Assembly: GCA_964461035.1 (NCBI GenBank)
Contig: CAYWRI010000003.1
Span: 3,213 to 67,212, forward strand
Origin: an uncultured Methanosarcinales archaeon
Lineage (GTDB): Archaea > Nanobdellota > Nanobdellia > Woesearchaeales > CAYZNE01
Direction: 5' to 3'
DNA: 64,000 nt
Numbering within the stretch: the stretch's first letter is position 1; every line of letters begins with the position of its first letter. Positions 1,147-60,430 of this stretch are shown in pieces. The translations under genes and the position numbers were made by a program. Below the pieces are notes generated by a model, which made no database searches, was not told where the DNA came from, and worked only from the letters and a program-made list of their open reading frames with translations.

Positions 1147-2400
1147 ATGGTCTATATGTCTGAAGATGATTCAGATTTGTTATTGGAAATTGTAAAAAGA
1201 GAATTATTTGATTTAAATTACAACCCTTTTTTCTTAGATATGGGCACAGGTTCAGGAATAATAAGTTTAAATATTTTTAATAAAGTGAAAGAAGTTTATG
1301 CTGTTGATATTGACCAAAAATCAATTAACTACATTCATAATAAAATAAATTCTCTAAACAATTCAATAATAATTAAAGACCAACGTAAAAATAATAAACA
1401 AATAAAGACTTCAAACAATAATTCGGTAGTAGACTTAAAAAAATCAGAACAACAATCCAAAATAAAAAACATTCATCTTGTAAGATCTGATTTATATTCA
1501 AATCTTAATTTTCTCAAAGCGAAATTTGATATTATCTCATTTAATCCACCATACTTACCTGATGAAAAGAATAAAAAAGACAATGATATTGCATTAAATG
1601 GTGGAAAACAAGGTTATGAAACAATAATAAAATTTCTTGAAAATTCAAAGGATTACTTAAAAAAAGATGGTTTTATTCTGCTTTTATTCTCTTCAAAAAG
1701 CAAAAAAAACATTATTTTTCAAAAAGCTAAAGCTCTTAACTATTCATGTTCACTATTAGCAAAAAAAGGTCTTTTCTTTGAAAAATTATATGTTTACAAA
1801 ATAAAACCCTCTGAGTATTTTCTTGCTCAAGGAAAAAGAGGAAAAATATATTTCTTTGAAAAAAATAATGAAAAATTCATAAGAAAAATGGCATTGAAAG
1901 AAAGCAAAGCCATGGGAAACATAGAAAATGAAGCAAGATTTAATCAATTATTGAACAAACACGATATTGGTCCAAAATTTATAAGTTATAATAAAGAAAA
2001 CAATTCTTTAATACGAGAATTTATTGAAGGTGAATTCTTAGGAGATTATTTAATTTCCCATTTAGAAAAAGAAATAATATCTGTTCTAAAAAAAATACTT
2101 TTGTTAATGTTAGAACTTGACTCACTAAAAATTAATAAACAAGAAATGACAAATCCTTACAAAAATATAATTGTAACAAACAATGGAGTTCCAGAACTAA
2201 TCGATTTTGAGAGGTGTAGATTTTCTCAAACTCCTAAGAATACAACTCAATTCCTACAATATTTATCTTCAAATCCTTTAAAATTAATACTTAAAAAAAA
2301 GAAAATAAACTTTAATAGACAAGAAACAATGCGTATTTCTAAGAAATACAAAGAAACCTATAATAAAAATTTAATTCTGGAATTTATTAAGAAATTATAA
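1147..2400 (+). CDS. HemK/Mtq2-like (N5-glutamine) methyltransferase fused to a C-terminal Bud32/RIO-like atypical kinase-fold domain
   Basis: The N-terminal half has SAM-binding 'LDMGTGSGII' and catalytic 'FNPPYLPD' (NPPY) motifs. The C-terminal half has 'LAQGKRGKIY' (Gly-loop-like), 'REFIEGEFL' and 'LIDFE' (DFG-like), arranged as in Bud32/RIO kinases. No canonical HxD catalytic loop is seen. Confidence 0.55.
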   Translation: MVYMSEDDSDLLLEIVKRELFDLNYNPFFLDMGTGSGIISLNIFNKVKEVYAVDIDQKSINYIHNKINSLNNSIIIKDQRKNNKQIKTSNNNSVVDLKKSEQQSKIKNIHLVRSDLYSNLNFLKAKFDIISFNPPYLPDEKNKKDNDIALNGGKQGYETIIKFLENSKDYLKKDGFILLLFSSKSKKNIIFQKAKALNYSCSLLAKKGLFFEKLYVYKIKPSEYFLAQGKRGKIYFFEKNNEKFIRKMALKESKAMGNIENEARFNQLLNKHDIGPKFISYNKENNSLIREFIEGEFLGDYLISHLEKEIISVLKKILLLMLELDSLKINKQEMTNPYKNIIVTNNGVPELIDFERCRFSQTPKNTTQFLQYLSSNPLKLILKKKKINFNRQETMRISKKYKETYNKNLILEFIKKL

Positions 2401-2540: not shown

Positions 2541-3089
2541 ATGCAGCACCATAGAAAATTAGTTAATGCAATGCACAAAAATGCATGGTCTAAAGAAGAA
2601 ATAGCTGAAAGTGTGGAAAAATTGCATAAATTTAGAACTCAAGAATCTAAATCTTTAATGATTAGTAAATACTGGATTAACATAGTTTTAATTTTTCTTT
2701 CAGTTGTCTTTAGCATTTCAATTTTGGTTCCAATAATTTTTGTAACAGATAAACTTACAGCTTTAACTATAACTATATTTTTTGGATTAATAATGGGCCT
2801 TACTCTAACAAATTCAATTTTGAGTTTAGAAGATTTTAATAATAAACATAAATTAATGTCGGATGTAATATTGTTTATTGTAATTTTAATACTTTCTTTT
2901 ATTACACTTAAATTAATTTTTAATTACATAAACTTTAATAAAACGCCAATTTATTATTGTGTAAGTTTTGCAATTAGTTTTGCTATTCCTACCTTAATTT
3001 CAAAATTACATTACATTCATGAAACTAAGAAATTGCAAAAAAACAAAAATAAAAAAACAAAACTTAAATATTATAAGAATATAAAATGA
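2541..3089 (+). CDS. Hypothetical integral membrane protein
   Basis: Several long hydrophobic segments (for example 'WINIVLIFLSVVFSISILVPIIFV'). Overlaps the next ORF by 4 nt. Confidence 0.4.
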   Translation: MQHHRKLVNAMHKNAWSKEEIAESVEKLHKFRTQESKSLMISKYWINIVLIFLSVVFSISILVPIIFVTDKLTALTITIFFGLIMGLTLTNSILSLEDFNNKHKLMSDVILFIVILILSFITLKLIFNYINFNKTPIYYCVSFAISFAIPTLISKLHYIHETKKLQKNKNKKTKLKYYKNIK

Positions 3090-3493
3090 AAAAGATGAAT
3101 ATTAAAGAATGGACAGAAGTTTATTTCAGGCATAAAGATTTGTTTGAAAAATCACTTGATAATATAAAAGAAGAAGAAAATCATTTAATACTTGAATATA
3201 AAAATAGAAAAGATGTAGCAATACTAAGACCTGTTTTTGATGATTCAATCTTTGAAGAATTACATACTTTAGAAAATAAATATGATAAAAAATTCATTGT
3301 ATGTTCAAAAGCAAGTACAAATGTAGAATTCTTGATTAAAAATTGGAAAAGATTTTTAATAAAAAAATTAGTTATCATATTTGTAGACATAATTACAAAC
3401 AATAAGATTCTCATAAACACTTATTTACATAACATGGTTTCTGATACGGATAAACTAGACATTTCTGTTAAAACACTTTTTGCTAATCAATAA
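3086..3493 (+). CDS. Hypothetical protein
   Basis: ORF translationally coupled to the upstream membrane protein; no motif recognised. Confidence 0.35.
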   Translation: MKKMNIKEWTEVYFRHKDLFEKSLDNIKEEENHLILEYKNRKDVAILRPVFDDSIFEELHTLENKYDKKFIVCSKASTNVEFLIKNWKRFLIKKLVIIFVDIITNNKILINTYLHNMVSDTDKLDISVKTLFANQ

Positions 3494-3863: not shown

Positions 3864-5525
3864 TTAATAATTTTCTTGTTTATTAGTATTCGTATTCATC
3901 ATTCTTATTAAACGTATTAATAAAATTAAAGCAAGTAAAAATGTTATATATCCTAGATTAATTCCGAGTATTGTTGTTGCTTTACCAGCATAAAAAAATA
4001 TTGGTGTGGCAATAAATAATGCTGCAATTATATATGATATTGATTTTTTATTACTGGAAGAATCCATATGTTTTTCTATATCTTTAATTTCTTGATCTTC
4101 AACATGAAATTCAAAGTTACCTGATTCAATTTTTTTAAGAAATTCTATCAAATGTTCAGGAAGCTCGGTATATAAATCCCTATTTGAAATCATTTTTTTA
4201 ATTGTTTTCTTTGCAATATTTATAGGATTATACTTTTCCGCAACAATCTTTTCAATATTTGGACGCATCATTTCCTCAATATTTGTTTTAGGATAAATTT
4301 CTAAGCCAATACCTTCAAGATCCACAAGTGATTTTACTAAAAGCATTACACTTGATGGAAAAACCAAACCATGATTTACACCTGAATTTATTCCTTTATA
4401 CGCAGTCAAAATAAAACTACACTTACCAATTGATTTTCCATACCAATTCTTTATTATTTCTTTAGCGTCTTTTTTAAATGATTCAAGTTGTGCATTCTCA
4501 GTTTTTTCAGATAAATTAATAAGTCCTTGAATACATTGATTTATATCTTCATTAATTAAAGCTACAAAAACTTCACTTATTTTTGTTCTTATTTCTTTAC
4601 TTATATAACCAACCATTCCAAAATCAAGAAGTAAAGGAGTGTTATTTTTTGCAATAAAAATGTTTCCCGGATGTGGATCTGCATGAAAAAATCCGTCAAC
4701 AAAAATCATTTTGGAAAAAGAATTTATCAATTTTTGACAAAATTCTTTTCTATCATCTTCATTTTTAAATTTATGATAATATATATTTTCAGCTTTTTCA
4801 AATTCTAAAACCAGAATCTTATCTGTTGTAAATTCTTCAAAAGTTTTTGGAATTATAACGTTTTGTTCTTTTAAATTTTCACGAATAATATTTATGTTTT
4901 CTACTTCTTTTCTAAAGTTAAGTTCATTCAGTGTCCATTCTGCATACTCTTTTATTATTTCAACAAGATTATAATTTCTTAGCTTAGGAAAATGCTTATC
5001 TAATAAATGTGCTAGGAAAAAAAGAATATCAAGATCTCTTAGAATAATCTTTTTTGCATCAGGTTTCTGAACTTTTACAACTACTTCTTCCCCTGTCTTT
5101 AATTTTGCTCTATGAACCTGTGCTAAAGATGCAGTTGCAAGAGGGCTTTTATTAAAACTAGCAAATAATTTATTTAATTTTTTACCTGTTTCTAATTCAA
5201 TAGTTTTTTTAACCACAAAATATGAAATTGGTTTTGAATGCTCTTGCAATTTTCTTAACTCTTTACAATATTCATCAGGAACCATATCAGGTCTTACACT
5301 TAGTATTTGTCCTAATTTAATAAATGCGGGACCCAATCTTTCAAAAGCTCTTCTTAATCTTACTGGGTGTGAATCAATAATATTTTTATTTTTCTTAGAA
5401 CTTTTTTTAACAAAATGATGCAAATTTATTTTACTAATAGCAAAATCAAATCCTTCTTCAAAAAACACACTAAGAATCTTACTAAATCTACTTATATCTT
5501 TTATGTTTTCAGACAATTTACTCAT
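3864..5525 (-). CDS. ABC1/UbiB (AarF)-family atypical kinase with a C-terminal membrane anchor
   Basis: 'FERLGPAFIKLGQILSVRPDMVPDEY' and 'ASLAQVHRAKLKTGEEVVVKVQKPD' are hallmark ABC1/UbiB motifs. 'HADPHPGNIF' and 'DFG' are also present. Two C-terminal TM helices. Confidence 0.8.
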   Translation of the reverse strand: MSKLSENIKDISRFSKILSVFFEEGFDFAISKINLHHFVKKSSKKNKNIIDSHPVRLRRAFERLGPAFIKLGQILSVRPDMVPDEYCKELRKLQEHSKPISYFVVKKTIELETGKKLNKLFASFNKSPLATASLAQVHRAKLKTGEEVVVKVQKPDAKKIILRDLDILFFLAHLLDKHFPKLRNYNLVEIIKEYAEWTLNELNFRKEVENINIIRENLKEQNVIIPKTFEEFTTDKILVLEFEKAENIYYHKFKNEDDRKEFCQKLINSFSKMIFVDGFFHADPHPGNIFIAKNNTPLLLDFGMVGYISKEIRTKISEVFVALINEDINQCIQGLINLSEKTENAQLESFKKDAKEIIKNWYGKSIGKCSFILTAYKGINSGVNHGLVFPSSVMLLVKSLVDLEGIGLEIYPKTNIEEMMRPNIEKIVAEKYNPINIAKKTIKKMISNRDLYTELPEHLIEFLKKIESGNFEFHVEDQEIKDIEKHMDSSSNKKSISYIIAALFIATPIFFYAGKATTILGINLGYITFLLALILLIRLIRMMNTNTNKQENY

Positions 5526-5690: not shown

Positions 5691-5993
5691 TTACTCCACA
5701 TTGTCAAGAATAATCTTATTCTTAAAACCGCCTCTTTCATTCATTTTTTTAGAACGAATTTTCTCGATTTCTTCTTTTGAAAAACCTTTGAAATCATAAA
5801 TAGCATAAAGAACTTCTTGAATATCAGCTAATTCTTCAGAATTATTATCTTCTAAAAACTCATTAACTTCTTCTAAAAGCTTACTTTTCAATTCATTCCA
5901 ATATTCTTCATCATTAGCGATATGTGTTTTTGATATTTTATTAGACTTTTTTATGATTTCAGGTATTTTATCTCTAACTAATTTTGGTTTCAT
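5691..5993 (-). CDS. MazG/HisE-like all-alpha NTP pyrophosphohydrolase
   Basis: 'LVRDKIPEII ... EELADIQEVLYAI ... ERGGF' matches the small MazG-like NTP-PPase family pattern. Confidence 0.5.
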   Translation of the reverse strand: MKPKLVRDKIPEIIKKSNKISKTHIANDEEYWNELKSKLLEEVNEFLEDNNSEELADIQEVLYAIYDFKGFSKEEIEKIRSKKMNERGGFKNKIILDNVE

Positions 5994-7088: not shown

Positions 7089-7709
7089 CTACTTGATATT
7101 TTTATTATCTTTTTTCCTATACTTAGGAGGATCATGTCTGTGCTTTTTTCTATAAACTGCAGCAGTACTAGGTCTGTGTTTTTCAGTTCCATGTCCCTTT
7201 GCATCAAGATGTCTTGATTTTCTTCCAGCACTGGTAAGTCCCCTGAAAACTCTTCCTCTTTTCTTAGCAAGATCGCTAAGACCTTTATTTGCAAGTATTT
7301 GAGGATGTTCTCTATCTATTAGAATAACTTCATACCATATGTATAATCCATCTTTAGTAATATAATAGCTATTCAAAACTTCACAATTAGTGTATTTTTT
7401 ATTAGCTCTTTCTTCACAGACTTGTTGATAAGATTTATTCAAGACTAAACTTCTACGATTGTGTTTAGGTCGTCTTCCTCTTTGATCATGAGGTCTTTCA
7501 TGTCCTCCTCTTGCAACTCTCTGTCTTACAATTAAATATCCTTGCTTTGCTTTATAACCAAGTTCTCTTGCTCTATCAATTCTAGTTGGTTTAGCAACTC
7601 TTATGGTTGCAAGTTCTTTTCTGTATCCTAATAATCTTTCTCTTGATAATTTTTTAGCTTCTATTGTGGGATTTTTCCACGCTTCTTTCATATATTTTTG
7701 ATAACCCAT
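7089..7709 (-). CDS. rpl15e: Ribosomal protein eL15 (L15e)
   Basis: 'MGYQKYMKEAW ... RARELGYKAKQGYLIVRQRVARGG ... VLNSYYI ... YEVILID' closely follows the eL15 consensus. Confidence 0.9.
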   Translation of the reverse strand: MGYQKYMKEAWKNPTIEAKKLSRERLLGYRKELATIRVAKPTRIDRARELGYKAKQGYLIVRQRVARGGHERPHDQRGRRPKHNRRSLVLNKSYQQVCEERANKKYTNCEVLNSYYITKDGLYIWYEVILIDREHPQILANKGLSDLAKKRGRVFRGLTSAGRKSRHLDAKGHGTEKHRPSTAAVYRKKHRHDPPKYRKKDNKNIK

Positions 7710-7765: not shown

Positions 7766-8191
7766 TTATTTTTTCTCCTCTTCTTTTTTCTTTTCAACTT
7801 CTTTAGTTTCAGAAGTTTCAGCAGGTTTTTCCATTGGTTCAGGTCCATATTTAACTGTTTTCATATTTATTTGAACTGTGTTTTCATTAATAACACTGCC
7901 TGCAACGGTTTTTCTAAGTCTAATTCCTTTTCTTTTTCTTTTCTTTATGCCTACTCCTGAAGCAATAAGAATTTTTTTCCTTTGAGAACCATTAACATCT
8001 TTTCTCATAGGAAAACCACAATAATCAGAACCACCAGTTATTTGAAATTCATAACCTTTGAATCCGACAGCTTCACCTTTTATGATGTCACCAATTTTCT
8101 TTTCAATTAGAACTCTACAATCGTCGTCTTTAAGTTCTTTTTTATAACATTTTTTGGCTTTTGGACAGCCAATATTAAGTTTAAATTCCAT
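7766..8191 (-). CDS. rps6e: Ribosomal protein eS6 (S6e)
   Basis: 'FKLNIGCPKAKKCYKKELKDDD ... GYEFQITGGSDYCGFPMRKDV ... KKILIASGVGIKKRKRKGIRLRKTV' matches eS6. Confidence 0.9.
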   Translation of the reverse strand: MEFKLNIGCPKAKKCYKKELKDDDCRVLIEKKIGDIIKGEAVGFKGYEFQITGGSDYCGFPMRKDVNGSQRKKILIASGVGIKKRKRKGIRLRKTVAGSVINENTVQINMKTVKYGPEPMEKPAETSETKEVEKKKEEEKK

Positions 8192-8194
8192 TAT

Positions 8195-8247
8195 TGTCTC
8201 CTCCGAGCGCCCTTAACTTTGCAAGGACTCAGTCGATATAAATATAT
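8195..8247 (-). promoter_or_regulatory. Putative promoter and RBS of rps6e. On the minus strand a TATA-like 'TTTATAT' lies about 45-55 nt upstream and a 'GGAGGAG' Shine-Dalgarno 4-5 nt before the ATG.
   Basis: Read directly from the sequence: the plus strand carries 'ctcctcc' at 8195-8201 and 'atataaatatat' at 8236-8247. Confidence 0.4.
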
Positions 8248-8694
8248 GCGAACCTCATTTCATTTAAAAATCTTTTTGAATCTTTCTATCTTTTTTTAGA
8301 TTTAATTTAATGTTAAATAAAATAGAATTTTCACTTTTTAATAGAAGTAATCAGAGCTAAAAAATAGAGTGGGATTTTATTTATACTTTTTTTGAATTTC
8401 ATTTTTTCTTAAAAAAGTTGTAAAAATATAAATGTAAAATAGAAATAAAGATTTTTCAGACATCAGTTCTAATTTTGATAACCTTGGTTGTCTTTCTTGT
8501 ATTGTGTAGTTTGATATTTACTTAATCATGAAGTATCGCTAAAGCTTTTCGGATTGAACGCTGCAGACTCTAGATGCATTAATATTTATTTTGATTAACT
8601 CAATTAACTTAAGTAAGAAATATAATTTTGAACAATATAATCTACAATAAAAAATCAGTGAAATTTTTAAATGAATTTATATTCCTAATGAACT

Positions 8695-8874
8695 ATGGAA
8701 AATTCAACTAATGACGCTTTAGGCTTTTTCTTTTGTTATGATGAGGTATATAATCAAGCATCAACTTGGTTTAAAAAAAATGAAATTACAACACCTCTTT
8801 CATCTAGTGAACGGCAGGATCAACTAAGAGCATACACATCTGAAGCAAATGGACTTTATAATTCAAAAAGGTAA
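8695..8874 (+). CDS. Small hypothetical ORF (59 aa) below the ORF-track cutoff
   Basis: ATG...TAA ORF (MENSTNDALGFFFCYDEVYNQASTWFKK...) in the AT-rich islet upstream of the 8931 ORF. No homology recognised. Confidence 0.2.
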   Translation: MENSTNDALGFFFCYDEVYNQASTWFKKNEITTPLSSSERQDQLRAYTSEANGLYNSKR

Positions 8875-8930
8875 CTTCTTATATTTATTTAACAGTAAAG
8901 TTTAATAATGCCTATTGATTTGCATCATTA

Positions 8931-9461
8931 ATGGAAGATATACTGGTTCCAAATATTATTTTAACAAAACTTTATACTTTGCAAAAGGTAAGTGACTCTA
9001 AAATTGTGAGTTCAGGAAATTTATTATCTGATATTGCAATCGCACTTTATTTTGATTATTCTGGAAATTATTCTTCTGAAGGTTACATGTTTAAAATAAA
9101 TTCTTGTTCAGAGCGTCTTTGTGATATTTATCGTTTTAGAGCTAAAACAAAAAGGATTTTGGATGAAATAACTGAACATGTTGAGAGCAAAAATGTATCA
9201 AACGTTAAAGGCTGTGTTTTCGGTCAGTCTACTTATGTATTGGAAAAACAATATTTATCTAAAAGATTTTATTTTCATGGAACTTTATCTACTTTACTTA
9301 AACAGTATTTTTCTGAGCAAAATATTGATATGGATTGGCAATTAAAACCTGCAATGTTAGAATTATTTTTAGATTCTCAAACTGGTAGATTCTCAAAAAA
9401 TATTGTTCTTTACAAAAATTTATTAAAACACACAGAACCTACGAGCGTTCTTTTAATGTAG
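8931..9461 (+). CDS. Hypothetical protein
   Basis: 176-aa ORF; no recognisable motif. Confidence 0.4.
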   Translation: MEDILVPNIILTKLYTLQKVSDSKIVSSGNLLSDIAIALYFDYSGNYSSEGYMFKINSCSERLCDIYRFRAKTKRILDEITEHVESKNVSNVKGCVFGQSTYVLEKQYLSKRFYFHGTLSTLLKQYFSEQNIDMDWQLKPAMLELFLDSQTGRFSKNIVLYKNLLKHTEPTSVLLM

Positions 9462-9672
9462 GCTGTTTAAAAATATAAAAAATTAAATTGTTTTGCAATA
9501 TCATAAACTATCGGTTAATATGAAAACTTCTTTATTCTGAATTGTGTAACTTGTTACATGTGCCAACAATTTTTGGTTTAGCATAGAACTCAAAAATACA
9601 AAAAAGATAAAAGGTTTCACAATAGCCAATCATCTAGAAAGATTTAAATATCAATCTAAATTCTCAAGAAAT

Positions 9673-10551
9673 ATGGTTGATAATAAAAAAGATTCAAAAT
9701 TTGATTATGATTTAGTATTTAGACAGTTTCAATCACAACTATTAACACCTTTTTGTAAGGATGGTTCAGGAAATCGTTTAGTTATTGGAGGACTTTTAGG
9801 TGTTGTTCAAGATAAAACTCTTTTATCAATTATGGAAGAGATGTTACGGGATAAAATTACTCAAAAAGGTAATCCTAAAGAACTTCCTGGAAATATATTT
9901 GAATTAGGATATAGTCAATTCAGTGTTGTATTATCTGGCTATGCAGGACATATAACCTATTCTCCAATAACAGAATGGATATTGGGTGGTGAAATTGCAG
10001 AAAAATGCAAGACTTTAGAATTAGATAAGACTGAAACATATTTAAACTATCAAAGAAAATATAATAATTTCAATCCTGAATTTTTATTTTCATTTCTGTT
10101 AGATTTTAGTGTTGCAGGTAAAGATCCAAATAAACAGTTTATCTTCTACTTAAAAGAAGAAATTCTCAGCACTGAAGATAGAAAAGTAATTACAAATAGA
10201 TTAGATTATCTTTTGAATATTCTTGAAGTATCTGAAACTTATTATGATAGAGCAAAAGAATTTAATCCTTGGGATTTATTAATTGGTCTTACTAGAGAAA
10301 TGTATGCTAAATTAAATCCTGATTCTAATAAAGATTTTATTAAAAGAGGAATAATACAATATCAAGAGGGATGTTCGAGTTACATACCTGAAGGATTAAT
10401 ATTGGAATCGCCTGAAGAGAACCTATTTCTAAGAAATTGTGATAAACAAGACAAGACTTCGTATGTTGATAAAAAAGCAATTGCGGTATATACAAAAACA
10501 GATATAGAAATAGGCACTCGTTTTGGTAGATTAGCAAAAATAATTAATTAA
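9673..10551 (+). CDS. Hypothetical protein
   Basis: 292-aa ORF; no recognisable motif. Confidence 0.45.
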   Translation: MVDNKKDSKFDYDLVFRQFQSQLLTPFCKDGSGNRLVIGGLLGVVQDKTLLSIMEEMLRDKITQKGNPKELPGNIFELGYSQFSVVLSGYAGHITYSPITEWILGGEIAEKCKTLELDKTETYLNYQRKYNNFNPEFLFSFLLDFSVAGKDPNKQFIFYLKEEILSTEDRKVITNRLDYLLNILEVSETYYDRAKEFNPWDLLIGLTREMYAKLNPDSNKDFIKRGIIQYQEGCSSYIPEGLILESPEENLFLRNCDKQDKTSYVDKKAIAVYTKTDIEIGTRFGRLAKIIN

Positions 10552-10618
10552 AAAATAATTTCATTTAATTCTAATAGTTTTACAATAACCTAAACAACCG
10601 ATAAATTTATATATATGT

Positions 10619-10638
10619 AGTATACATTAGTGTATACT
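10619..10638. promoter_or_regulatory. Perfect 8-bp inverted repeat AGTATACA-ttag-TGTATACT, about 40 nt upstream of the PRC-barrel gene
   Basis: Seen in sequence next to a 'tttatatatat' TATA-like stretch; a 'aaagggtgg' RBS precedes the ATG at 10677. Confidence 0.35.
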
Positions 10639-10676
10639 GCAATAATCAATTAAAGAATTTAAAGGGTGGTATTAAT

Positions 10677-10943
10677 ATGTTAAAAGTAAAAAGAATATCT
10701 GAAACCTATGATATGAGAGTTTTCACAGACTTGGGCGACTATTTCGGTGATATAGAGGAAGTAATTCTTGCTCACACAAAAATTGCCGGTTGGAGAGTCA
10801 GAGCAACTAAAAATTCGTTTTTGAGTAAAGTACTAGGAAATGCTAAAGGAGTTATTGTTCCACATCAACTTGTAAAAAGTATCGGAGACATAATGATTAT
10901 AAATAAAACAGCAGTTCCTGCATACTCTGGAGACGAAGAGTAA
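10677..10943 (+). CDS. PRC-barrel domain protein
   Basis: 88 aa. 'MRVFTDLGDYFGDIEEVIL ... GWRVRA ... GVIVPHQLVKSIGDIMIIN' is the typical small archaeal PRC-barrel pattern. Confidence 0.55.
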   Translation: MLKVKRISETYDMRVFTDLGDYFGDIEEVILAHTKIAGWRVRATKNSFLSKVLGNAKGVIVPHQLVKSIGDIMIINKTAVPAYSGDEE

Positions 10944-11014
10944 ATCTTTTTTATTTTATTATTTTTTAAAAAAATTATTTCTTATTGACAATTTAGAAAT
11001 ATTTTAAAATATGT

Positions 11015-12019
11015 TTAGTCATTAATATGTCTTTTAATTTGAGTAATCTGTTTTATTAATTCTTCACCATTTTCACACATTTGATATTTATATTTTTTTT
11101 GAAAGTCTTTAATAAAATCTGCTACTTGCTTTTTATCTAGAATATCTTTTTTACTTAAATAAATAATAATCGGCTTTTCTAATTCTATAATTCTATCTAA
11201 TAAGTTAAATTGATCTTTAATAGGATATTGCTCTGTTAAATCAAAAACATAAATTGTCATATTTGCAGCATATTTCATTGCAATATCTGCTTGTTTTTCA
11301 ATATCATTCATCTTATTAAACCGAGCTAAAGTTCCAGGTGTATCAATCAATTGTATTTTTTCAGCATGATGTTTAAAGTAACCTGTATTTAATTTTCTTG
11401 TAGTAAATGGATAATCATTTATTTCAGGTTCAGAATTAGTTACCTGAGATAATAAAGTACTTTTTCCAACATTAGGAAAACCAGCTATCGCAACAGTGAA
11501 TAATGTTGTTTTTATAGCAGGATAGTTTTTCATAATCTTTCTATTTTTTTCTATTATTTTTAGAAATTTATCAACTTGTTTTAAAATACTTGATACTCGA
11601 CCAATACAACCACCACTTAATTTATTCAAAAAACCTATATCTCTTTCTTCATTGAAAACTTTTAATTTTCTCATAGCTTCACAACATATTTTATTTATAT
11701 TATATTCTGCCCATGAAATACTTGCTAACGCTTTTTTTAAATTATCGACATCAAGAGTTAATTCAATCAACTGCCTATAAAATTCAGGAAGTGAATCAAT
11801 ACTTGGAAAATTAGAATGAATATCATGTAATCTTGAACAAAGTTCATCTCTTAATATTTTTATTTTATCTATTTCGATTCTCTTAGATTTAATTAGTTTA
11901 CTAACACTCCTAAGTCTAATAGTGCTACGTAAAGCTTTACTCTTAATTTCTCCTTTTCTTAGAGCCACATCAAGATAAACTTGATAGTCCTCTATACTTT
12001 TCATATTCTGAAAATTCAT
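11015..12019 (-). CDS. Nog1-family GTP-binding protein (NOG1 N-terminal domain plus GTPase)
   Basis: G1 'IAGFPNVGKSTLL', G2 'YPFTT', G3 'IDTPG' and 'SKKD'. The N-terminal roughly 170 aa match the Nog1 N-domain layout. Confidence 0.75.
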   Translation of the reverse strand: MNFQNMKSIEDYQVYLDVALRKGEIKSKALRSTIRLRSVSKLIKSKRIEIDKIKILRDELCSRLHDIHSNFPSIDSLPEFYRQLIELTLDVDNLKKALASISWAEYNINKICCEAMRKLKVFNEERDIGFLNKLSGGCIGRVSSILKQVDKFLKIIEKNRKIMKNYPAIKTTLFTVAIAGFPNVGKSTLLSQVTNSEPEINDYPFTTRKLNTGYFKHHAEKIQLIDTPGTLARFNKMNDIEKQADIAMKYAANMTIYVFDLTEQYPIKDQFNLLDRIIELEKPIIIYLSKKDILDKKQVADFIKDFQKKYKYQMCENGEELIKQITQIKRHIND

Positions 12020-12050: not shown

Positions 12051-13004
12051 TTAGTCAGATGTTTGGTATTGCTTTATCTGAATTGGTTCTGCTCTTGAAA
12101 CATTATTTTTTATTTTTTCAGCAAGATAGTTAAGTCCTTTTTTAATAAAGAATATATCTCCTAAAAACATAAGGGTTTTACATAACATATTATAATTTTT
12201 CCTTTGATTAGAATTTTGAATTAAAAACTTAGAATCTCTAAATAAAGAAACAGTTTTCTTTCTGTGATTATATAAATTTAACGTATTCTCAGACAAACTA
12301 ATATTTTTATCCAAAATATAACTTTCATTTCCATCTTCAATTATATCTACAAAATCATCATATAGTGTACTTATAGCGCAAAAGTTTTGAATAACTTTTT
12401 CTTCGTTAGAAGCTAATTTTTTCTTTGAATATAAATTAATAAACGCAGATTGAATTTTACCATAAATCATTCCAATGTTTAATCTTTCAAGTTTTTTTTC
12501 TTCAGAAGATTGTGTATCAAAATAATTAATTATTGAAGAAGCATATTCTGTTAAAAGATCATGCAAAATAAATTTAAATGAGTTATCTTTAGATAAAACG
12601 GATTGATTTAAATAATCAACTAGGGGCTGAGCTTTTAATAAAAATTCATTTTTTGTATTTCTAGTTTCTAAAAATTTAATTCCTTCTGAAATCAATTCAA
12701 AAATATTTAAATTCGAATTTTTTTGGGAACTGAAAATTTCGGAATGTGTTCCATCAATACAACAATCTAGATAAGACGAGTAAAGATTAAATGCTGCTGT
12801 AACTTTAATAGATTCATAATCTATATCTAAATTAAAAAGTTTACCAAAAACTAAAGAACCTAAACCGGATATGGCCACACCTTTTTTAGCTTTATTTAGT
12901 TTGATAACATCATTTTCTAAATCATTATCAAACATTTTCTCTAAATTTTGTTGCCAAGACTTTAATTCTCTAAAAGATGTTCTAACAATCGAAATCAAAT
13001 TCAT
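12051..13004 (-). CDS. Hypothetical protein, possibly an isoprenoid-synthase-like fold
   Basis: The only suggestive motifs are 'LYDDFVDIIEDG' (DDxxD-like) and an upstream 'YLDCCIDG' about 130 aa earlier. This is weak. Confidence 0.35.
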   Translation of the reverse strand: MNLISIVRTSFRELKSWQQNLEKMFDNDLENDVIKLNKAKKGVAISGLGSLVFGKLFNLDIDYESIKVTAAFNLYSSYLDCCIDGTHSEIFSSQKNSNLNIFELISEGIKFLETRNTKNEFLLKAQPLVDYLNQSVLSKDNSFKFILHDLLTEYASSIINYFDTQSSEEKKLERLNIGMIYGKIQSAFINLYSKKKLASNEEKVIQNFCAISTLYDDFVDIIEDGNESYILDKNISLSENTLNLYNHRKKTVSLFRDSKFLIQNSNQRKNYNMLCKTLMFLGDIFFIKKGLNYLAEKIKNNVSRAEPIQIKQYQTSD

Positions 13005-34910: not shown

Positions 34911-35444
34911 ATGAACTACAAAGATTCAGTTTTAGGGTTAATAGATAAGAAAACTATTGCGGTTATAGTGTTTTTATTTCAAAATCCAACTAAAGAATTT
35001 TGTCTTAATGAGATTTCTGAAGGTAGTAAAGTGCCTGTAGCAACAGTTTATAGGATTCTTAGAAAGCTTACAAGATATGACCTTATCAAATTTAATAAAA
35101 TTAAATCGTTAAGGTTATATAAAATAAGTAATAATGATGCTATAGAGTTCTTGAGGCCCCTATTTGAAGATTCAGATGCTCATCTTGCAGAATTCATAGA
35201 TTTAGTGAGTCCTGATCCTAATATTTATAGTATCATACAATATGGTAAAGAATCAAAAGATAGAATCAATCTATTAGTAATAGGTGATAAAGTTGATTCA
35301 GAGCCGGTTAAAGGCGTTGTATATGCTATTAAAGAGAAATATGGTATAACTTTAAACACTTTAGTTCTAGAACCTGATCAATATGTTCAAATGTCTGATA
35401 TGGGGCTTTATTCTGGTAGAAAAAAAGAATTATTTTCTAGATAA
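34911..35444 (+). CDS. Winged-helix (TrmB/MarR-like) putative transcriptional regulator
   Basis: N-terminal 'FCLNEISEGSKVPVATVYRILRKLTRYDLIKF' is an HTH-recognition-helix pattern. The C-terminal domain is unassigned. Confidence 0.45.
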   Translation: MNYKDSVLGLIDKKTIAVIVFLFQNPTKEFCLNEISEGSKVPVATVYRILRKLTRYDLIKFNKIKSLRLYKISNNDAIEFLRPLFEDSDAHLAEFIDLVSPDPNIYSIIQYGKESKDRINLLVIGDKVDSEPVKGVVYAIKEKYGITLNTLVLEPDQYVQMSDMGLYSGRKKELFSR

Positions 35445-35721
35445 TTGGTTGAATTTGATTGATTTATATACTAAACTATAGAAAGGTTTAAATATAAGTT
35501 ATGACACAGTTATTATAAAAGATTCTAAAAAGCAAATCTGCCCCTTACTCTTCAGTATTGGCGAAATGGCTTTTTAGCAGTGTTTCAGCAAGATTAAACC
35601 CGAAGATGTTCAAAATCCTAAAACTTTGCTTTTAAACCTTTGGGTTTTTTAATATATATGTTTTAGGATATAAGTGCTGAGTTTTGGAATCTTAAAATAA
35701 AATGGTGTGTGGTGTATAAAA

Positions 35722-36798
35722 ATGGATTTTATTGTGGAAAATGCTTTAAAGCAACAAGAAAGTATGGCAACTCCAGATGATTTATCTGTGGGTCAAGCTA
35801 ATATTAAAGTGTTAGGAAGTGGTGGAGCTGGAAATAATATGGTTAACTGGCTTTACAAGAAAGGAGTTAGAGGAGCAGAAATAATCGCATGTAATACTGA
35901 TTTGCAACATTTAAATATGATAGAAGCAGATAAAAAATTCTTGATTGGAAAAGATGTTACAAGAGGTTTAGGTTGTGGTGGTTTCCCGGAAAAAGGGGCT
36001 GAGGCAGCAAGGGAATCAATGCAAGAACTTAAAGAAGCATTAAAAGGTGCAGATATGTGCTTTGTATGTGCTGGAATGGGTGGAGGAACTGGAACAGGTT
36101 CATCACCAATCGTAGCTCAAGTAGCTAAAGAAGCAGGTGCAATTGTTATAGGAACTGTAACAATGCCATTTAAAATAGAAAGAGCAAGAGTTGATAAAGC
36201 AGAATTTGGTTTACAAAAACTGAGACAAGTTGCAGATACAGTAATAGTAATAGATAACAACAGATTAGTTCAAATAGCTGGAAATCTACCTGTTCAACAA
36301 GCATTTGCAGTAGCAAACGAACTTATAGCTACAATGATTAAAGGAATTGTTGAAACAATCGCTGTACCTTCACTTGTTAACTTAGATTATGCAGATGTAA
36401 AAGCAATAATGACTGATGGTGGAGTTGCTGCAATCGGAGTAGGTGCTTCAGACACAAACAATAGGGTTGAAGAAGCAGTTAAAGGTGCTTTAAGTAATCC
36501 TTTATTAGACATATCTTACGAGGGTGCAACAGGAGCAATCTTACATATTTCAGGAGGTCCTGATATGACTCTTGATGACATAAACACTATTGGTGAATTA
36601 GTTACTGAATCAATGGATGCTGATGCAAATGTTATCTGGGGTGCAAGAGTTGATGATGATATGAAGGAAAAAATTACGGTTATGACTATTATAACTGGAG
36701 TTCAGAGTCCTTGGATTCTTGGAAAGCCTTCACAAAGAGAAGCTCAAGCAGCTAAAGTTCGATTATCAAATGAGCTTGGCATAGAAATTGTAAGATAA
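35722..36798 (+). CDS. ftsZ: Cell division GTPase FtsZ. The ORF track starts at a GTG at 35707; the ATG at 35722 is preferred.
   Basis: '[15 protein letters not shown]' and '[20 protein letters not shown]' (tubulin/FtsZ GGGTGTG signature); '[10 protein letters not shown]'. Confidence 0.92.
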
Positions 36799-36948
36799 TT
36801 TTTTTATTACTTTTATTTTTTTCATTACATTACAAATATAGTATTTCATGTAAACTAGAGCATATAGAATTCAAAATTATTGATTTTAAAAGAAGAATGC
36901 TCAAAACAACATGAATTTTTCTATTTTTTTTAAAATATTTAGAAATTA

Positions 36949-37107
36949 CTATCTGAATTCTTTTTTAGCTTGTCGTCTATAGCGTGCATATTTGTCAGAT
37001 AAAGAAAATTTAGGCGGTCTTTGTCGAATTGCTTTAGATGAGCAAGAAGGACAAATTTCTTCAAGAGTATACATATTACATTTTGAGCATTTATGAATAT
37101 GTTCCAT
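36949..37107 (-). CDS. nop10: H/ACA ribonucleoprotein subunit Nop10 (52 aa; not in the ORF track)
   Basis: Hand translation of the minus strand gives 'MEHIHKCSKCNMYTLEEICPSCSSKAIRQRPPKFSLSDKYARYRRQAKKEFR'. This has the CxxC...YTL...CPxC zinc ribbon and the 'PPKFSxxDKYxxYR' Nop10 signature. It starts 2 nt after the aIF2alpha stop, the conserved archaeal aIF2alpha-Nop10 linkage. Confidence 0.75.
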   Translation of the reverse strand: MEHIHKCSKCNMYTLEEICPSCSSKAIRQRPPKFSLSDKYARYRRQAKKEFR

Positions 37108-37108
37108 T

Positions 37109-37948
37109 TTATTTTTTATTTATTCTAGAAAAACTAAATTCGGCATCATTTTTTTGACAATAAGCTTCAGCTTCACTAATACCTTTTTTCAATAGCTTTT
37201 CACCTTCAAGATAATCGTGAGTAAGCATTCTTAATTTAAATTTACCTGATCCCAAATACTTCACTGAAATAGGTTCTTTTTTTGAACTTTGAAGTGCATG
37301 TAACGTATCTTCAGACACTTCTTTTTCAAGAGCTTCAAATATTTGTAATGCTTTTTTTACAATTTCAAGACCATTTTCAGCATAAGTTTTAACCATAATA
37401 TCTCCAACAATTTCAACTTGTTTTGGTTTTATTCTTTCTCTAATAACTTTGTCAAGCGCTTTAACTTCTTCGGGAGTTAAGTTTTGTTGTTCGCTAAAAT
37501 CATAATCTTCTTCTATAACTGCTTCAAAAAGAGGATATACTGAATCATATTCTGATATTGCAAATGCAGAAACTTTTTTATAAAACAATTTAACATCTTG
37601 CTTAAGCTCTTTTGCAACATCAATTATTATTTTTTCTGCTTTTTCTTCAAGTTTAATTTTATTTAGAGTTTTTCTTTTTTGATTTTCATTAACTCTTCTT
37701 AAAGAAAGATCAATATAACCTTTTTCTTGATTAATTTTAAGAACTTTACATACAACTTGTTTATCAACTTTAACATAATCATTTAAACTTCTTATTCTTC
37801 CAGGGCTGACTTCTGAAATATGAATCATACCCTGTTTTCCATACATTTCAATATTTACAAAAACTGAATTAAATGAAACTTTTGTAACTTTACATAGGAC
37901 CAAGTCCCCGTCCTCTGGAAATCCTTCTTTAATTAATAACATATTCAA
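37109..37948 (-). CDS. eif2a: Translation initiation factor 2 alpha subunit (aIF2alpha/eIF2alpha)
   Basis: N-terminal S1 domain 'FPEDGDLVLCKVTKVSFNSVFVNIEMYGKQGMIHISEVSPGRIRSLNDYVKVDKQVVCKVLKINQEKGYIDLSLRRV'. Confidence 0.9.
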   Translation of the reverse strand: MNMLLIKEGFPEDGDLVLCKVTKVSFNSVFVNIEMYGKQGMIHISEVSPGRIRSLNDYVKVDKQVVCKVLKINQEKGYIDLSLRRVNENQKRKTLNKIKLEEKAEKIIIDVAKELKQDVKLFYKKVSAFAISEYDSVYPLFEAVIEEDYDFSEQQNLTPEEVKALDKVIRERIKPKQVEIVGDIMVKTYAENGLEIVKKALQIFEALEKEVSEDTLHALQSSKKEPISVKYLGSGKFKLRMLTHDYLEGEKLLKKGISEAEAYCQKNDAEFSFSRINKK

Positions 37949-38233
37949 TGTAGAATAAGGAACGCTTTATTAAGTTTACTATTCAAAGGGTGTGTCCAGA
38001 ATGATAAAAAATACTGCCTTGGAGTAAATTAAGTGAAATACATTTTGTGTCTAAACACAAAATTATTGTATTTCAAGATTAGAATTTGGCCACGAGTGGT
38101 CAACAATTCTCAGCAGTATAGAAACATATTCCATTCTGAACATACTATTCAATATTCTTAAGTTGATGAACTCTTTCTATTAAATTATACTACTAATTTA
38201 AGAAAATATTAATCAACTAATTTTTTTATAATT

Positions 38234-44422: not shown

Positions 44423-45544
44423 TTAACTTATCAGTCTATTGAATTCTTCATAATATGCTGAAGAAATATCCTGATTGTGAATTATCAATAAGTTTTCAGA
44501 ATTCTTATTAAAACCATTATTTGAAAAATTAGGTGATCCTACTATTACAACTTCTTCGTCTATAACTATGAACTTGTGATGCATATTTCCTTTATTCGAG
44601 TCTTCATAAATTTCAACTCCTGATTCTTGAAGATAATTAAAAACTGAACCAAGACCATTTTTACTTTTTGATTCCATAACAATTCTAACATCAACTTGAT
44701 TATCTTGAGCAGAAATTAAAGCATCTGCAATATCTTTAGATGTAAAACTAAATATTGCAACAACAACAGAATATTTTGCTTGATGAATCAAGTCAACAAT
44801 TCTATTTATTGTAGAATCATGTGGTAAAAAATAATTCTCAATAATGTAATTATCATGGATAAAGTACTTTGTTATGTTTGGAGTTGTTCCATATTTTAAA
44901 TATTCAAATTCTGCTAAATAATTATTTTTTAGAATCTCGGATTTAATTACTATAAAATTATTATTATTTCTCCGTGTACCAAATTTGGTTGGATTCATGC
45001 TTCCTGTTAAAACAGTATTGTTATCTAAAATACAAAATTTATTGTGCATAACTCCTGAATTTCTCATAAACTTTTTGTTGGTAATATTTTCAAGTAAAAT
45101 ATCCTGTTCAAGTTGAATATCAAAAATCAAATCAGTATTTTTCTTTTCTAAAATAGAAACTAATGGTTTTAAATTAATATCATAAAATGCACAGGATATA
45201 TTTTCAGAAGAATTAATTGTTTTAATAAGACCAGCACTACAATTATTATAATTACAAAAATATAACTTTAATGGGCCATTATCAAACGCAAGACGATTAT
45301 AAATAGAGTTATTTGATGAATTATCTGTTGAATCAACAAAAGAATTATTCAATTCGTTAAATCTTGTTGAATTTGAATAAAAGCTCAAATTTAATAAATT
45401 CATACTGAATAAATTTATTGGTCGAGTTGAAAAAATGACTACCAAACTAATCAAAATAATAAAAAAAAATATTAAAATAAACATTAGTGATTTTGATATC
45501 TTTACTCTTTTTTTCTGGTTTTTCTTCATTTTATCTTTAATCAT
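44423..45544 (-). CDS. Phospholipase-D-superfamily protein with two HKD motifs and an N-terminal TM anchor
   Basis: HKD-1 'HNKFCILDNNTVLTGSMNPT', HKD-2 'HHKFIVIDEEVVIVGSPNFSNNG'. N-terminal 'LMFILIFFFIILISLVVIF'. Confidence 0.75.
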   Translation of the reverse strand: MIKDKMKKNQKKRVKISKSLMFILIFFFIILISLVVIFSTRPINLFSMNLLNLSFYSNSTRFNELNNSFVDSTDNSSNNSIYNRLAFDNGPLKLYFCNYNNCSAGLIKTINSSENISCAFYDINLKPLVSILEKKNTDLIFDIQLEQDILLENITNKKFMRNSGVMHNKFCILDNNTVLTGSMNPTKFGTRRNNNNFIVIKSEILKNNYLAEFEYLKYGTTPNITKYFIHDNYIIENYFLPHDSTINRIVDLIHQAKYSVVVAIFSFTSKDIADALISAQDNQVDVRIVMESKSKNGLGSVFNYLQESGVEIYEDSNKGNMHHKFIVIDEEVVIVGSPNFSNNGFNKNSENLLIIHNQDISSAYYEEFNRLIS

Positions 45545-59506: not shown

Positions 59507-60430
59507 ATGAAATCAGACTTTTACAAAGAAATGAGTAAGAATAATTGGAAAACGGTTCTCCTATTTATTATGTTCTTTATACTTGTAACTTTATTTGGCA
59601 TTGCATTTGGTGCATATTTTGGAGATATTTATTTTGGTGTTGGTCTTGCAATAATTGTTGGAATAATTTATACTGTGATTGCATACAATTTCGGTGCATC
59701 GACTATTCTTGCAAGTTTAAATGCAAAACCAGTAACTTCTGAAAGTGATCCTTATTTATACGAGGTTGTTGATGGGTTAAGAATTGCTGCAGGTTTAAAG
59801 AATACGCCTAAAATATTTATGATTAAAGAAGATTCTATGAATGCTTTTGCAACTGGAGTTAATCCTGAAAAATCATATATTTGCGTAACTTCTGGTTTAA
59901 GAGAAAAAATGAACAGACAAGAACTAGAAGGTGTTATTGCTCATGAAATGAGTCATATAAGAAATAAAGATATAAAAGTTATGCTCTTAGCTGCAGTTCT
60001 TGTCGGTGTTGTTATTTTACTTTCTGATGTAATATTTAGAAGTTTTATTTGGAGGGGTGCAGGAAGAAGTAGGCGAAGCAATTCTGGAGGTCAAGCTCAA
60101 TGGATTTTGATAATAATTGCTTTAGTATTGGCAATTTTAGCACCATTAATAGCTCAGCTAATAAAACTTGCGATTAGTAGAAAAAGAGAGTATTTAGCTG
60201 ATGCTTCAGCAGTTCAACTTACCCGATATCCTGCAGGTTTAAAATCCGCTCTTGAAAAAATCAAAGGAGATACTGATGTTACTGTTGATACTGCTAATAA
60301 AGCAACCGCACACATGTTTATAGAAAATCCTCTTAGAAATAAAAAAAGAACTAGTTTTATTACACGAATGTTTAGTACACATCCACCCATAGAGGATAGA
60401 ATTAAAGCTCTTGAATCCATGAGTTATTAG
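59507..60430 (+). CDS. M48-family (HtpX-like) zinc metalloprotease, membrane-bound
   Basis: 'IAHEMSHI' (HExxH), four TM segments, and 'FSTHPP' near the C-terminus. Confidence 0.75.
   Translation: MKSDFYKEMSKNNWKTVLLFIMFFILVTLFGIAFGAYFGDIYFGVGLAIIVGIIYTVIAYNFGASTILASLNAKPVTSESDPYLYEVVDGLRIAAGLKNTPKIFMIKEDSMNAFATGVNPEKSYICVTSGLREKMNRQELEGVIAHEMSHIRNKDIKVMLLAAVLVGVVILLSDVIFRSFIWRGAGRSRRSNSGGQAQWILIIIALVLAILAPLIAQLIKLAISRKREYLADASAVQLTRYPAGLKSALEKIKGDTDVTVDTANKATAHMFIENPLRNKKRTSFITRMFSTHPPIEDRIKALESMSY

Follow-up and report, generated by a model that had tools for sequence, protein, structure and literature searches.

The region 8192–11014 of the window (the whole stretch of DNA analysed, 64 kb long) is probably a normal but loosely packed piece of the chromosome of a Woesearchaeota-type (DPANN) archaeon in which gene order is poorly conserved. 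This degree of confidence applies to the explanation as a whole, that is, to a spacer, three lineage-restricted genes and a PRC-barrel gene that are linked by nothing beyond adjacency. The loose packing would result from the presence of an own promoter on every gene here and probably also from past rearrangement, a presumed history. The genes described in the earlier note (those of ribosomal protein eS6, a Nog1-type GTPase and ORFs of 59, 176, 292 and 88 aa) were all found where it had placed them; they are listed in Table 1 together with the other features of the region. The non-coding share of 8192–11014 is 34% vs 12% for the window, which puts the region into the top 0.2% of sliding windows. 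The earlier note gave the distance between the ORFs as about 200 nt. This holds for one spacer only, the actual values being 56, 211, 125 and 71 nt.

Table 1. Genes and sequence elements of the region and of its two boundaries (window coordinates).
Feature	Position	Strand	Remarks
Ribosomal protein eS6 gene	7766–8191	-	Pfam Ribosomal_S6e, E = 5.8e-35; left boundary
Non-coding spacer, 503 nt	8192–8694	.	Between divergently transcribed eS6 and orf59
Putative eS6 5' leader	8192–8239	-	Shine-Dalgarno GGAGGAG at 8198–8204 and a small hairpin; sequence read directly
Promoter-like ATTTTTAAATGA, putative eS6 TATA box	8260–8271	-	Inverted copy of 8663–8674 (inverted pair I3); sequence read directly
Promoter-like ATTTTTAAATGA	8663–8674	+	TATA-like octamer ends 22 nt before orf59 ATG
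orf59	8695–8874	+	Probable gene of a small acidic protein, 59 aa, pI 4.8; promoter at canonical offset
TATA-like TTTAATAA	8901–8908	+	22 nt before orf176 ATG
orf176	8931–9461	+	Soluble protein, 176 aa; coding score 0.385 per codon
TATA box TTTAAATA	9643–9650	+	Preceded by aaaga; 22 nt before orf292 ATG; leaderless-type promoter
orf292	9673–10551	+	292 aa; coding score 0.452 per codon; sparse unannotated family
Conserved PRC promoter block GATAAATTTATATATATGT	10600–10618	+	TATA box at 10606–10613; nearly invariant in window, L012, L017 and L018
8-bp inverted repeat AGTATACA-ttag-TGTATACT	10619–10638	+	Between TATA box and predicted start (~10636)
Shine-Dalgarno GGGTGG of PRC gene	10664–10669	+	Kept in closest relatives; GGTGG-/GGAGG-type in most others
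PRC88	10677–10943	+	Stand-alone PRC-barrel protein of putative CdpB type, 88 aa
Nog1-family GTPase gene	11015–12019	-	Pfam NOG1_N, MMR_HSR1 and NOG1; convergent with PRC88; right boundary

Five other assemblies hold contigs of this organism, which are 100% identical and so offer no polymorphism to exploit, and a search for paralogues inside the 64-kb window found none. The nearest relatives of the Nog1 protein are just 54–61% identical to it. Statements on the gap, orf59 and orf176 across relatives hold for the distance of the nearest comparison genomes (~60% Nog1 identity).

None of the relatives examined (five archaeal genomes from the genome scan, 79 PRC loci and another three contexts of Nog1) shares the gene order of the region, and the suggestion that the three upstream ORFs are restricted to this lineage is supported. 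Nog1 of the closest relatives is located inside a DUF5679-AsnC-SpoIIM-Nog1-ZPR1 block. In L005 and L007 the gene of Nog1 directly adjoins that of eS6, and the two diverge. This last arrangement is what would be expected if the segment 8.2–10.6 kb were an old ameliorated insertion (a mobile-element remnant or an islet) splitting an ancestral eS6-Nog1 adjacency, and the same reading is favoured by the lack of orf59, orf176 and orf292 at every relative's locus examined as well as by the patchy distribution of the orf292 family, which has no fixed context. An insertion, which the earlier note also had in mind, is nevertheless quite unlikely. The eS6-Nog1 adjacency is not general among relatives, the segment includes the core PRC gene, and both its GC content and its codon usage are host-like. 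Neither a tRNA nor an integrase match nor a flanking direct repeat is present, and the searches against PHROG, PADLOC (defence systems), phage, plasmid and viral-contig sequences gave nothing significant. The two possible ends of an inversion (the gap and the Nog1/orf317 junction) were compared as well and share no inverted repeat.

In archaeal leaderless promoters transcription begins at the start codon itself, and the BRE/TATA elements lie ~25 nt upstream of it. In the DNA analysed here the distance from the end of a TATA-like octamer to the ATG is exactly 22 nt in 11 genes, as compared with a background of ~0.4 per offset. The 11 genes include orf59, orf176 and orf292 as well as at least 8 others in the window; two of the 11, those of orf59 and orf176, depend on variants of the TATA element by which the pattern was extended once they had been seen. 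The TATA element of orf292 and its spacing are the same as at the gene 60436–60957 (−). Since each of the three ORFs has an offset-22 promoter, they look like three separate transcription units and not like an operon, the transcription starts being placed solely by the spacing. The rule itself (TATA-like octamer, 22 nt, ATG) can be used for validation of small ORFs in this genome.

The idea of a “module” put forward in the earlier note does not agree with these separate leaderless-type promoters, nor with the occurrence of orf292 homologues in four different contexts. Its most specific form, a lineage-specific functional cell-division module composed of orf59, orf176, orf292 and PRC88, appears very improbable. 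The four genes are indeed adjacent and lie on one strand, and PRC-barrel proteins do act in archaeal division, but a separate promoter precedes each of the three ORFs at the canonical offset and that of PRC88 is conserved independently. Moreover, none of the 79 PRC loci contains a homologue of the three ORFs. In the four loci with readable flanks the orf292 relatives are found in four different neighbourhoods and never adjoin a PRC gene or an orf176 partner. The comparative data already speak against such a module. Most consistent with the explanation preferred here, orf59, orf176 and orf292 would be independently transcribed, leaderless genes of soluble proteins that evolve fast and are restricted to this lineage.

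orf176 and orf292 are coding and have host-like codon usage: their coding scores are similar to those of the training genes (0.446 ± 0.10 per codon), and an ORF of 176 aa or more was met in 0 of 4000 simulations. The coding score of orf59 is weak (0.197 per codon) and its length is not beyond chance (P = 0.06–0.12). Independent pipelines nonetheless call it as a gene, and it probably is one, as suggested by the promoter spacing and not by the length alone. No match was found for orf59 in Pfam, NCBIfam, PHROG or PADLOC, and phmmer against PDB gave nothing significant for it. For orf176 the searches in Pfam, NCBIfam, PHROG, PADLOC, PDB, phage and viral-contig sequences gave nothing significant, and a word-indexed search of 5.8 billion proteins returned only the protein itself. 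Lack of a homologue is, however, a weak statement for orf176 and orf59, because one orf292 relative, which phmmer aligns at 43% identity, escaped the word-indexed search. The single-sequence AlphaFold2 model of orf176 is unusable (pLDDT 37). Pfam, NCBIfam, PHROG, PADLOC and a phmmer search of PDB gave nothing significant for orf317 either.

For orf292 the word-indexed search also returned self only, a false negative in view of the relatives found later with HMMER. The full HMMER search revealed eight of them (269–314 aa), with which orf292 shares 19–42% identity in alignment A1 and 22–43% in local phmmer alignments. orf292 is thus, as judged by this similarity, not a strict ORFan. The motifs FNPxxL, YY..NPW and YIKxG are conserved in the family, and seven columns of the alignment are invariant. 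Two of the relatives bear the name “hypothetical protein [Candidatus Woesearchaeota archaeon]”. No match of orf292 to Pfam or PDB was obtained even with the family profile, nothing significant was found in NCBIfam, PHROG and PADLOC, and the single-sequence AlphaFold2 model is unusable (pLDDT 33). A local HMM of the family detected no further member among all ORFs compared. The 273-aa ORF between eS6 and Nog1 of L007 was considered as a candidate member and turned out to be unrelated. The family deserves attention as a target for structure prediction.

The 88-aa protein was correctly recognized in the earlier note as a PRC barrel: residues 5–78 match Pfam PF05239 with 22.7 bits vs a cut-off of 21.2. 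Among the PDB chains, residues 6–76 match 8qzo_A (E = 2.2e-11) and 8onw_A/D (E = 5e-11 to 7e-11), which we take to be published CdpB structures. PRC88 has 412 metagenomic relatives, and the best 79 of them outside this organism are 74–90% identical to it. The gene was regarded in the earlier note as part of an accessory segment. Such conservation among the best 79 relatives characterizes it instead as a highly conserved core gene. The gene of FtsZ (Pfam Tubulin and FtsZ_C, 35707–36798) is located in the same window, and a tblastn search of the 64-kb window with an L005 ORF judged by eye to be SepF-like found no SepF homologue. Most likely PRC88 acts in FtsZ/SepF-based cell division. The identity of 74–90% in the PRC88-type protein, while that of Nog1 drops to 45–61%, fits an essential role in division in Woesearchaeota.

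The perfect 8-bp inverted repeat reported upstream of the PRC gene is present. A repeat of this kind is expected by chance in ~7% of 125-nt spacers, and 22 inverted repeats of 8 bp are observed in the window vs ~41 expected. In L018 a 9-bp inverted repeat occupies the same place with one compensatory change of G-C to A-T. L017 and L012 retain six of the eight pairs, and more distant relatives do not have the repeat. It is possible that this element serves as an operator. A broader reading takes orf292 and its eight relatives as an undescribed family, possibly with a new fold or function, and at the same time takes the repeat as an operator under repressor control in reduced symbionts; this combination seems rather unlikely.

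The gene-free stretch of about 500 nt noticed in the earlier note is the longest non-coding gap of the window (the next one is 318 nt, the median 53 nt). It was also described there as extremely AT-rich, which is not the case: the gap is not unusually AT-rich, since its GC content is 0.241 (24.1%), pooled intergenic DNA having 0.228 (22.8%) and the window as a whole 0.275, and many shorter spacers of the window have a GC content of 0.10–0.20. The promoter motif typical of this genome occurs at both ends of the spacer, in inverted orientation to each other. The spacer is probably a long divergent-promoter region: on the left it would hold the promoter of eS6 with the leader and its Shine-Dalgarno sequence, and on the right the promoter of orf59. 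The 5' end of the putative eS6 leader is placed by the TATA spacing; the hairpin in this leader (-12.1 kcal/mol, z = -1.3) is not significant. Function was not detectable in the central ~390 nt between the two promoters. No frame of 8192–8694 has a positive coding score. Comparison of the spacer with the relatives' loci (about 100) by blastx and blastn gave no significant match. A pseudogene remnant in the spacers was considered too, and blastx against 1393 ORFs of relatives gave no match. A scan for sigma-70 promoters and terminators found no excess over shuffled sequences, this model being a wrong one for an archaeon.

An unrecognised non-coding RNA specific to this lineage, e.g. one of ~130 nt extending from ~8460 to the T-run 8587–8593, is unlikely to be encoded in the spacer. 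In its favour, the spacer is the longest gene-free stretch of the window, the GC content is ~0.26 at 8400–8599 vs 0.195 at 8300–8499, and the GC-richer patch has a TATA-like sequence upstream and the T-run downstream. At the same time both strands of the patch have a fold z-score of +0.7, a scan of the spacer for the C/D-box pattern found nothing, and similar sequence occurs in none of the about 100 related loci. Rfam 15 at gathering score gave 0 hits in the whole window, and at E ≤ 10 the best E-values in 8000–11100 are only 3.2 and 8.6; the matches to snoU19 and DdR1 are at chance level. The tRNA search by ARAGORN found none. The fold z-scores of the 503-nt spacer run from +0.1 to +1.5, and among the eight spacer segments folded none has a significant value. 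Separately, the GC-richer patch at 8460–8580 could be an unstructured RNA.

It is extremely improbable that the spacer is a replication origin with the function of a DNA-unwinding element, an alternative raised in the earlier note. Its length, its lack of genes and its place between diverging genes would suit an origin, and the local GC skew changes its sign near 8300, but this flip coincides with the switch of gene orientation, and the spacer is no more AT-rich than other spacers. Apart from the two 12-nt copies of the promoter, the search for ORB and mini-ORB repeats yielded only low-complexity T-rich matches (70–85% identity). The Pfam scan of nine neighbouring genes and of ten large ORFs of the window revealed no Orc1/Cdc6, their assignments being other ones or lacking. 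The minimum of the cumulative GC skew, calculated for the 64-kb window only, lies near 14–15 kb, and this skew tracks gene orientation.

As a whole, the region has little significance beyond annotation. It shows that separate promoters for the single genes, together with fast-evolving lineage-restricted genes, can account for an island-like region of a DPANN genome, and neither an origin nor a mobile element is needed.

orf59, orf176 and orf292 resemble genes with archaeal leaderless promoters in having an A-rich stretch and a TTTAWAWA-like octamer with 22 nt to the ATG. In contrast to this promoter type, eS6 and PRC88 use Shine-Dalgarno-led leaders. The alignment of orf292 with the DPANN/Woesearchaeota hypothetical families represented by MBI5002628.1 and MBI2548725.1 covers most of the protein; unlike all its relatives, orf292 carries an insert of ~45 aa near the N-terminus.

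Nearly all archaea that use FtsZ, DPANN among them, have PRC-barrel genes; most of these are stand-alone, and translation genes and GTPases are frequent neighbours (bioRxiv 10.1101/2023.03.28.534520, 10.1101/2023.03.28.534543). PRC88, known here from its sequence, is assigned as a putative member to the CdpB type as a whole and not to a particular one of the clades B1, B2 and B3; known representatives include Haloferax CdpB1-3, the crystal structure of Archaeoglobus fulgidus CdpB1:CdpB2 and MTH1859 (PDB 1PM3). In most relatives the PRC gene adjoins a gene of ~230 aa (TraB-like by eye) and not Nog1 as here. Like the CdpB-type proteins, PRC88 has a single domain and is encoded by a stand-alone gene beside translation and GTPase genes, with FtsZ in the same window.

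The region between eS6 and Nog1 is ordinary: it comprises a long spacer between divergent promoters, three lineage-restricted genes, each predicted to be transcribed independently, and a highly conserved CdpB-type gene. The earlier note was largely right on this region, with its gene positions confirmed (see the table); its figure of about 200 nt for the spacers between ORFs does not hold in general, nor does "extremely AT-rich". The non-coding share of 8192–11014 is 34% vs 12% for the window overall. Around the FtsZ gene lies another loosely packed region, 30% non-coding, whose spacers measure 262, 310 and 285 nt.

Among the products encoded in the window (GC 27.5%) are archaeal ribosomal proteins, SecY, FtsZ, aRF1 and a Nog1-type GTPase. 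Even the nearest relatives of Nog1 share just 54–61% identity with it and belong to metagenome-assembled genomes labeled Woesearchaeota, Nanobdellota or (TPA assemblies) "uncultured Methanosarcinales archaeon". The sequence is real, since several ENA and JGI assemblies hold contigs 100% identical to it, with no polymorphism. A contig of the same organism from another assembly (L016) matches from window position 10331 at 100% identity except for its positions 1–43, where the mismatch probably reflects an assembly artefact at the contig end or else a junction between strains within orf292.

Positions of the features in the window
Feature	Position	Strand	Remark
Methyltransferase	1147-2400	+	weak Eco57I-type similarity; met during Orc1 search
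Gene	3086-3493		homologs recur near PRC in relatives
ABC1/UbiB-type atypical kinase	3864-5525	-	met during Orc1 search
eL15	7089-7709	-	
eS6	7766-8191	-	
Gap	8192-8694		
ATTTTTAAATGA, first copy	8260-8271	-	
GC-richer patch	8460-8580		slightly GC-richer than the rest of the gap
Abutting palindromes	8561-8579		
ATTTTTAAATGA, second copy	8663-8674	+	
orf59	8695-8874	+	59 aa
orf176	8931-9461	+	176 aa
Promoter-rule example	9643-9672		
orf292	9673-10551	+	292 aa
TATA box of PRC88	10606-10613		
8-bp inverted repeat	10619-10638		
PRC-barrel ORF (PRC88)	10677-10943	+	88 aa
Nog1	11015-12019	-	promoter-rule example
orf317	12051-13004	-	promoter-rule example
Loosely packed region	35434-38256		
FtsZ	35707-36798		
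PLD-domain protein	44423-45544	-	met during Orc1 search
Gene	59507-60430		homologs recur near PRC in relatives
Promoter-rule example	60436-60957	-	
Gene	63461-63931		homologs recur near PRC in relatives

The gap of 503 nt is the longest non-coding stretch of the window (next 318, median 53 nt), and none of its frames scores as coding under a codon-usage model built from 37 long window genes. Its GC of 0.241 compares with 0.228 for pooled intergenic DNA, and many short spacers of the window have GC of 0.10–0.20. The whole 64-kb window contains no tRNA gene and no Rfam match at gathering score; within the gap nothing credible appears locally at E <= 10, ARAGORN reports no tRNA and no C/D-box pattern is found. 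The folding z-scores of eight spacer segments lie between +0.1 and +1.5, with the eS6 leader alone at -1.3. Repeats are just T-rich low-complexity matches, and blastn and blastx reveal no similarity to ~100 related loci. The ends of the gap carry a 12-nt inverted pair, ATTTTTAAATGA, which fits the promoter motif of this genome. The minus-strand copy places the predicted start near 8239, in which case the eS6 leader would be ~48 nt long and contain a small hairpin as well as a GGAGGAG Shine-Dalgarno; the plus-strand copy has its TATA-like octamer ending 22 nt upstream of the ATG of orf59. From these RNA, repeat, similarity and promoter results it follows that the central ~390 nt are free of detectable features. 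The GC-richer patch is a weak candidate for an unstructured RNA. It contains three abutting 6-bp palindromes (CTGCAG-ac-TCTAGATGCAT; PstI, XbaI and NsiI sites), which are not a cloning artefact because they are found in independent assemblies.

It was proposed alternatively that the gap is an origin-like unwinding element. The local skew flip at ~8300 falls at the switch of gene orientation, and the cumulative skew minimum across the window lies near 14–15 kb. No ORB-like boxes are found in the gap, no Orc1/Cdc6 occurs among the nine neighbours and ten large ORFs scanned, and there is no excess of AT vs intergenic DNA. Nothing supports a replication origin in the gap.

The coding scores of orf176 and orf292 (0.385 and 0.452 per codon; training genes 0.446 ± 0.10) are accompanied by a GC1 > GC2 > GC3 pattern in both, and 4000 simulated spacers yielded no ORF of at least 176 aa. 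Orf59 is weaker (0.197 per codon; an ORF of its length would arise by chance with a probability of 0.06–0.12). The three products are predicted soluble proteins without a paralogue elsewhere in the window. The promoter octamer of this genome is TTTAWAWW, usually with an A-rich stretch before it. Of 70 genes, 11 have a TATA-like octamer whose end lies exactly 22 nt ahead of the start codon and 4 have one at 23 nt, against a background of ~0.4 per offset. An octamer at such an offset is a signature of archaeal leaderless transcription, and the rule would imply widespread leaderless mRNAs here; eS6, eL15, PRC88 and many ribosomal protein genes possess GGTG- or GGAGG-type Shine-Dalgarno sequences instead. 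The 22-nt class includes orf59, orf176 and orf292; the orf292 octamer fits the core pattern TTTA[AT]A[AT][AT], and those of orf59 and orf176 are variants put into the pattern after being seen. A leaderless-type promoter 22 nt before each gene argues for three separate predicted transcription units and thereby accounts for the longer spacers in this region.

For the three ORFs nothing is found in Pfam, NCBIfam, PHROG, PADLOC, PDB, phage, plasmid and viral-contig searches, and word-indexed searches of 5.8 billion proteins with orf292 and orf176 return the query only. An exhaustive HMMER search of 1.84 billion representatives yields eight relatives of orf292 (E 1.6e-48 to 6.5e-4; 269–314 aa) with 22–43% local identity by phmmer and 19–42% in the multiple alignment. 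The indexed search missed the relative with 43% phmmer identity and E = 1.6e-48, so "self only" there does not mean orphan status. For orf176 and orf59 that status is provisional because they were searched at lower sensitivity. The orf292 family alignment has seven invariant columns and common motifs FNPxxL, YY..NPW and YIKxG; neither the members nor the profile match Pfam or PDB, and two of the eight carry the database title "hypothetical protein [Candidatus Woesearchaeota archaeon]". Single-sequence AlphaFold2 models of orf292 and orf176 are unusable (pLDDT 33 and 37).

Four orf292 neighbourhoods are comparable (two further member loci are too short or unannotated), and all differ. The gene lies between orf176 and PRC88 in the window, between RadA and an AAA_33-type kinase in L102, and between a TrmB regulator and a P-type ATPase in L106. 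In L099 it precedes uL11 and follows a gene whose C-terminus resembles, by eye and with no family match on record, a class II aminoacyl-tRNA synthetase anticodon-binding domain. Judged from sequence, orf292 belongs to a sparse, fast-evolving family without conserved partner, whose two named members are Woesearchaeota proteins. The three separate promoters and the lack of a conserved orf292 partner speak against a "module".

In two compared loci (L005, L007) eS6 and Nog1 are directly adjacent and divergent, followed by L10e; the closest Nog1 relatives have a DUF5679-AsnC-SpoIIM-Nog1-ZPR1 block instead. Homologs of orf59, orf176 and orf292 are absent from the Nog1/eS6 loci of relatives and from 79 loci around PRC homologs, and the window gene order with these ORFs is not found in the loci examined. 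Gene order is thus fluid in this clade, since the surroundings of eS6, Nog1 and PRC differ among relatives and lack homologs of the three ORFs. An inversion or insertion between eS6 and Nog1 could have produced the window arrangement; no repeat marking either is found. Composition and codon usage are host-like, and the region has no tRNA, integrase or mobile-element match. The L007 Nog1 (9947–10956 of that locus; 61% identity, closest in the genome collection) is split into ORFs of 154 and 182 aa, which suggests a frameshift or assembly error. Orf317, directly upstream of Nog1 in the window, matches nothing in Pfam, NCBIfam, PHROG or PADLOC and lacks a homolog in the loci of relatives examined; its acidic DDFVDIIED motif is reminiscent of DDxxD motifs.

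"Lineage-specific" therefore holds for the three ORFs, absent from relatives' loci, and not for the PRC gene. PRC88 scores above the Pfam PRC cut-off and has matches at ~1e-11 to 8qzo and 8onw, chains of solved structures named "PRC-barrel domain-containing protein". It has 412 relatives in a metagenome scan, the best 79 of which outside this organism are 74–90% identical (Nog1 of the same lineages, 45–61%); it is a core gene. In the closest relative its neighbours are a 117-aa ORF and PolB, and Nog1 is 7.4 kb away. In L017–L095 it most often diverges from a ~230-aa gene of TraB-like appearance (judged by eye); this gene is among the three nearest PRC neighbours in 33 of 79 loci and immediately upstream in 26. 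A ~250-aa multi-pass and then a ~107-aa membrane protein follow it. None of these three genes is in the window, and the window homologs of other recurrent PRC neighbours (see the table) lie far from PRC88.

The 8-bp inverted repeat reported before the PRC gene is present. Such repeats are not rare (22 in the window vs ~41 expected; chance in a 125-nt spacer ~0.07). It sits between the TATA box and the inferred start at ~10636, the typical position of archaeal repressor sites. The window repeat (AGTATACA-ttag-TGTATACT) pairs 8/8. L018 (~5946–5967) has TAATATACA-tgtg-TGTATATTA, pairing 9/9 with one compensatory G-C to A-T change vs the window, and L017 and L012 have AGTATAGA-cata-TGTATATT at equivalent positions, pairing 6/8. 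The promoter block CGATA-R-R-TTTATATATATG and the Shine-Dalgarno GGGTGG are kept in all three; the repeat is absent from more distant relatives. This comparison is suggestive but thin as a sign of function, and the repeat may be a candidate operator. The threads that remain of note are the uncharacterised orf292 family, this possible operator and the featureless centre of the spacer.

SepF is not found in the window by tblastn with an L005 ORF that resembles SepF by eye, and FtsZ is present. Stand-alone PRC-barrel proteins (CdpB1-3) are brought to the FtsZ ring via SepF and occur in nearly all FtsZ-using archaea, DPANN among them; their genes often adjoin translation genes and GTPases (bioRxiv 10.1101/2023.03.28.534520, 10.1101/2023.03.28.534543).
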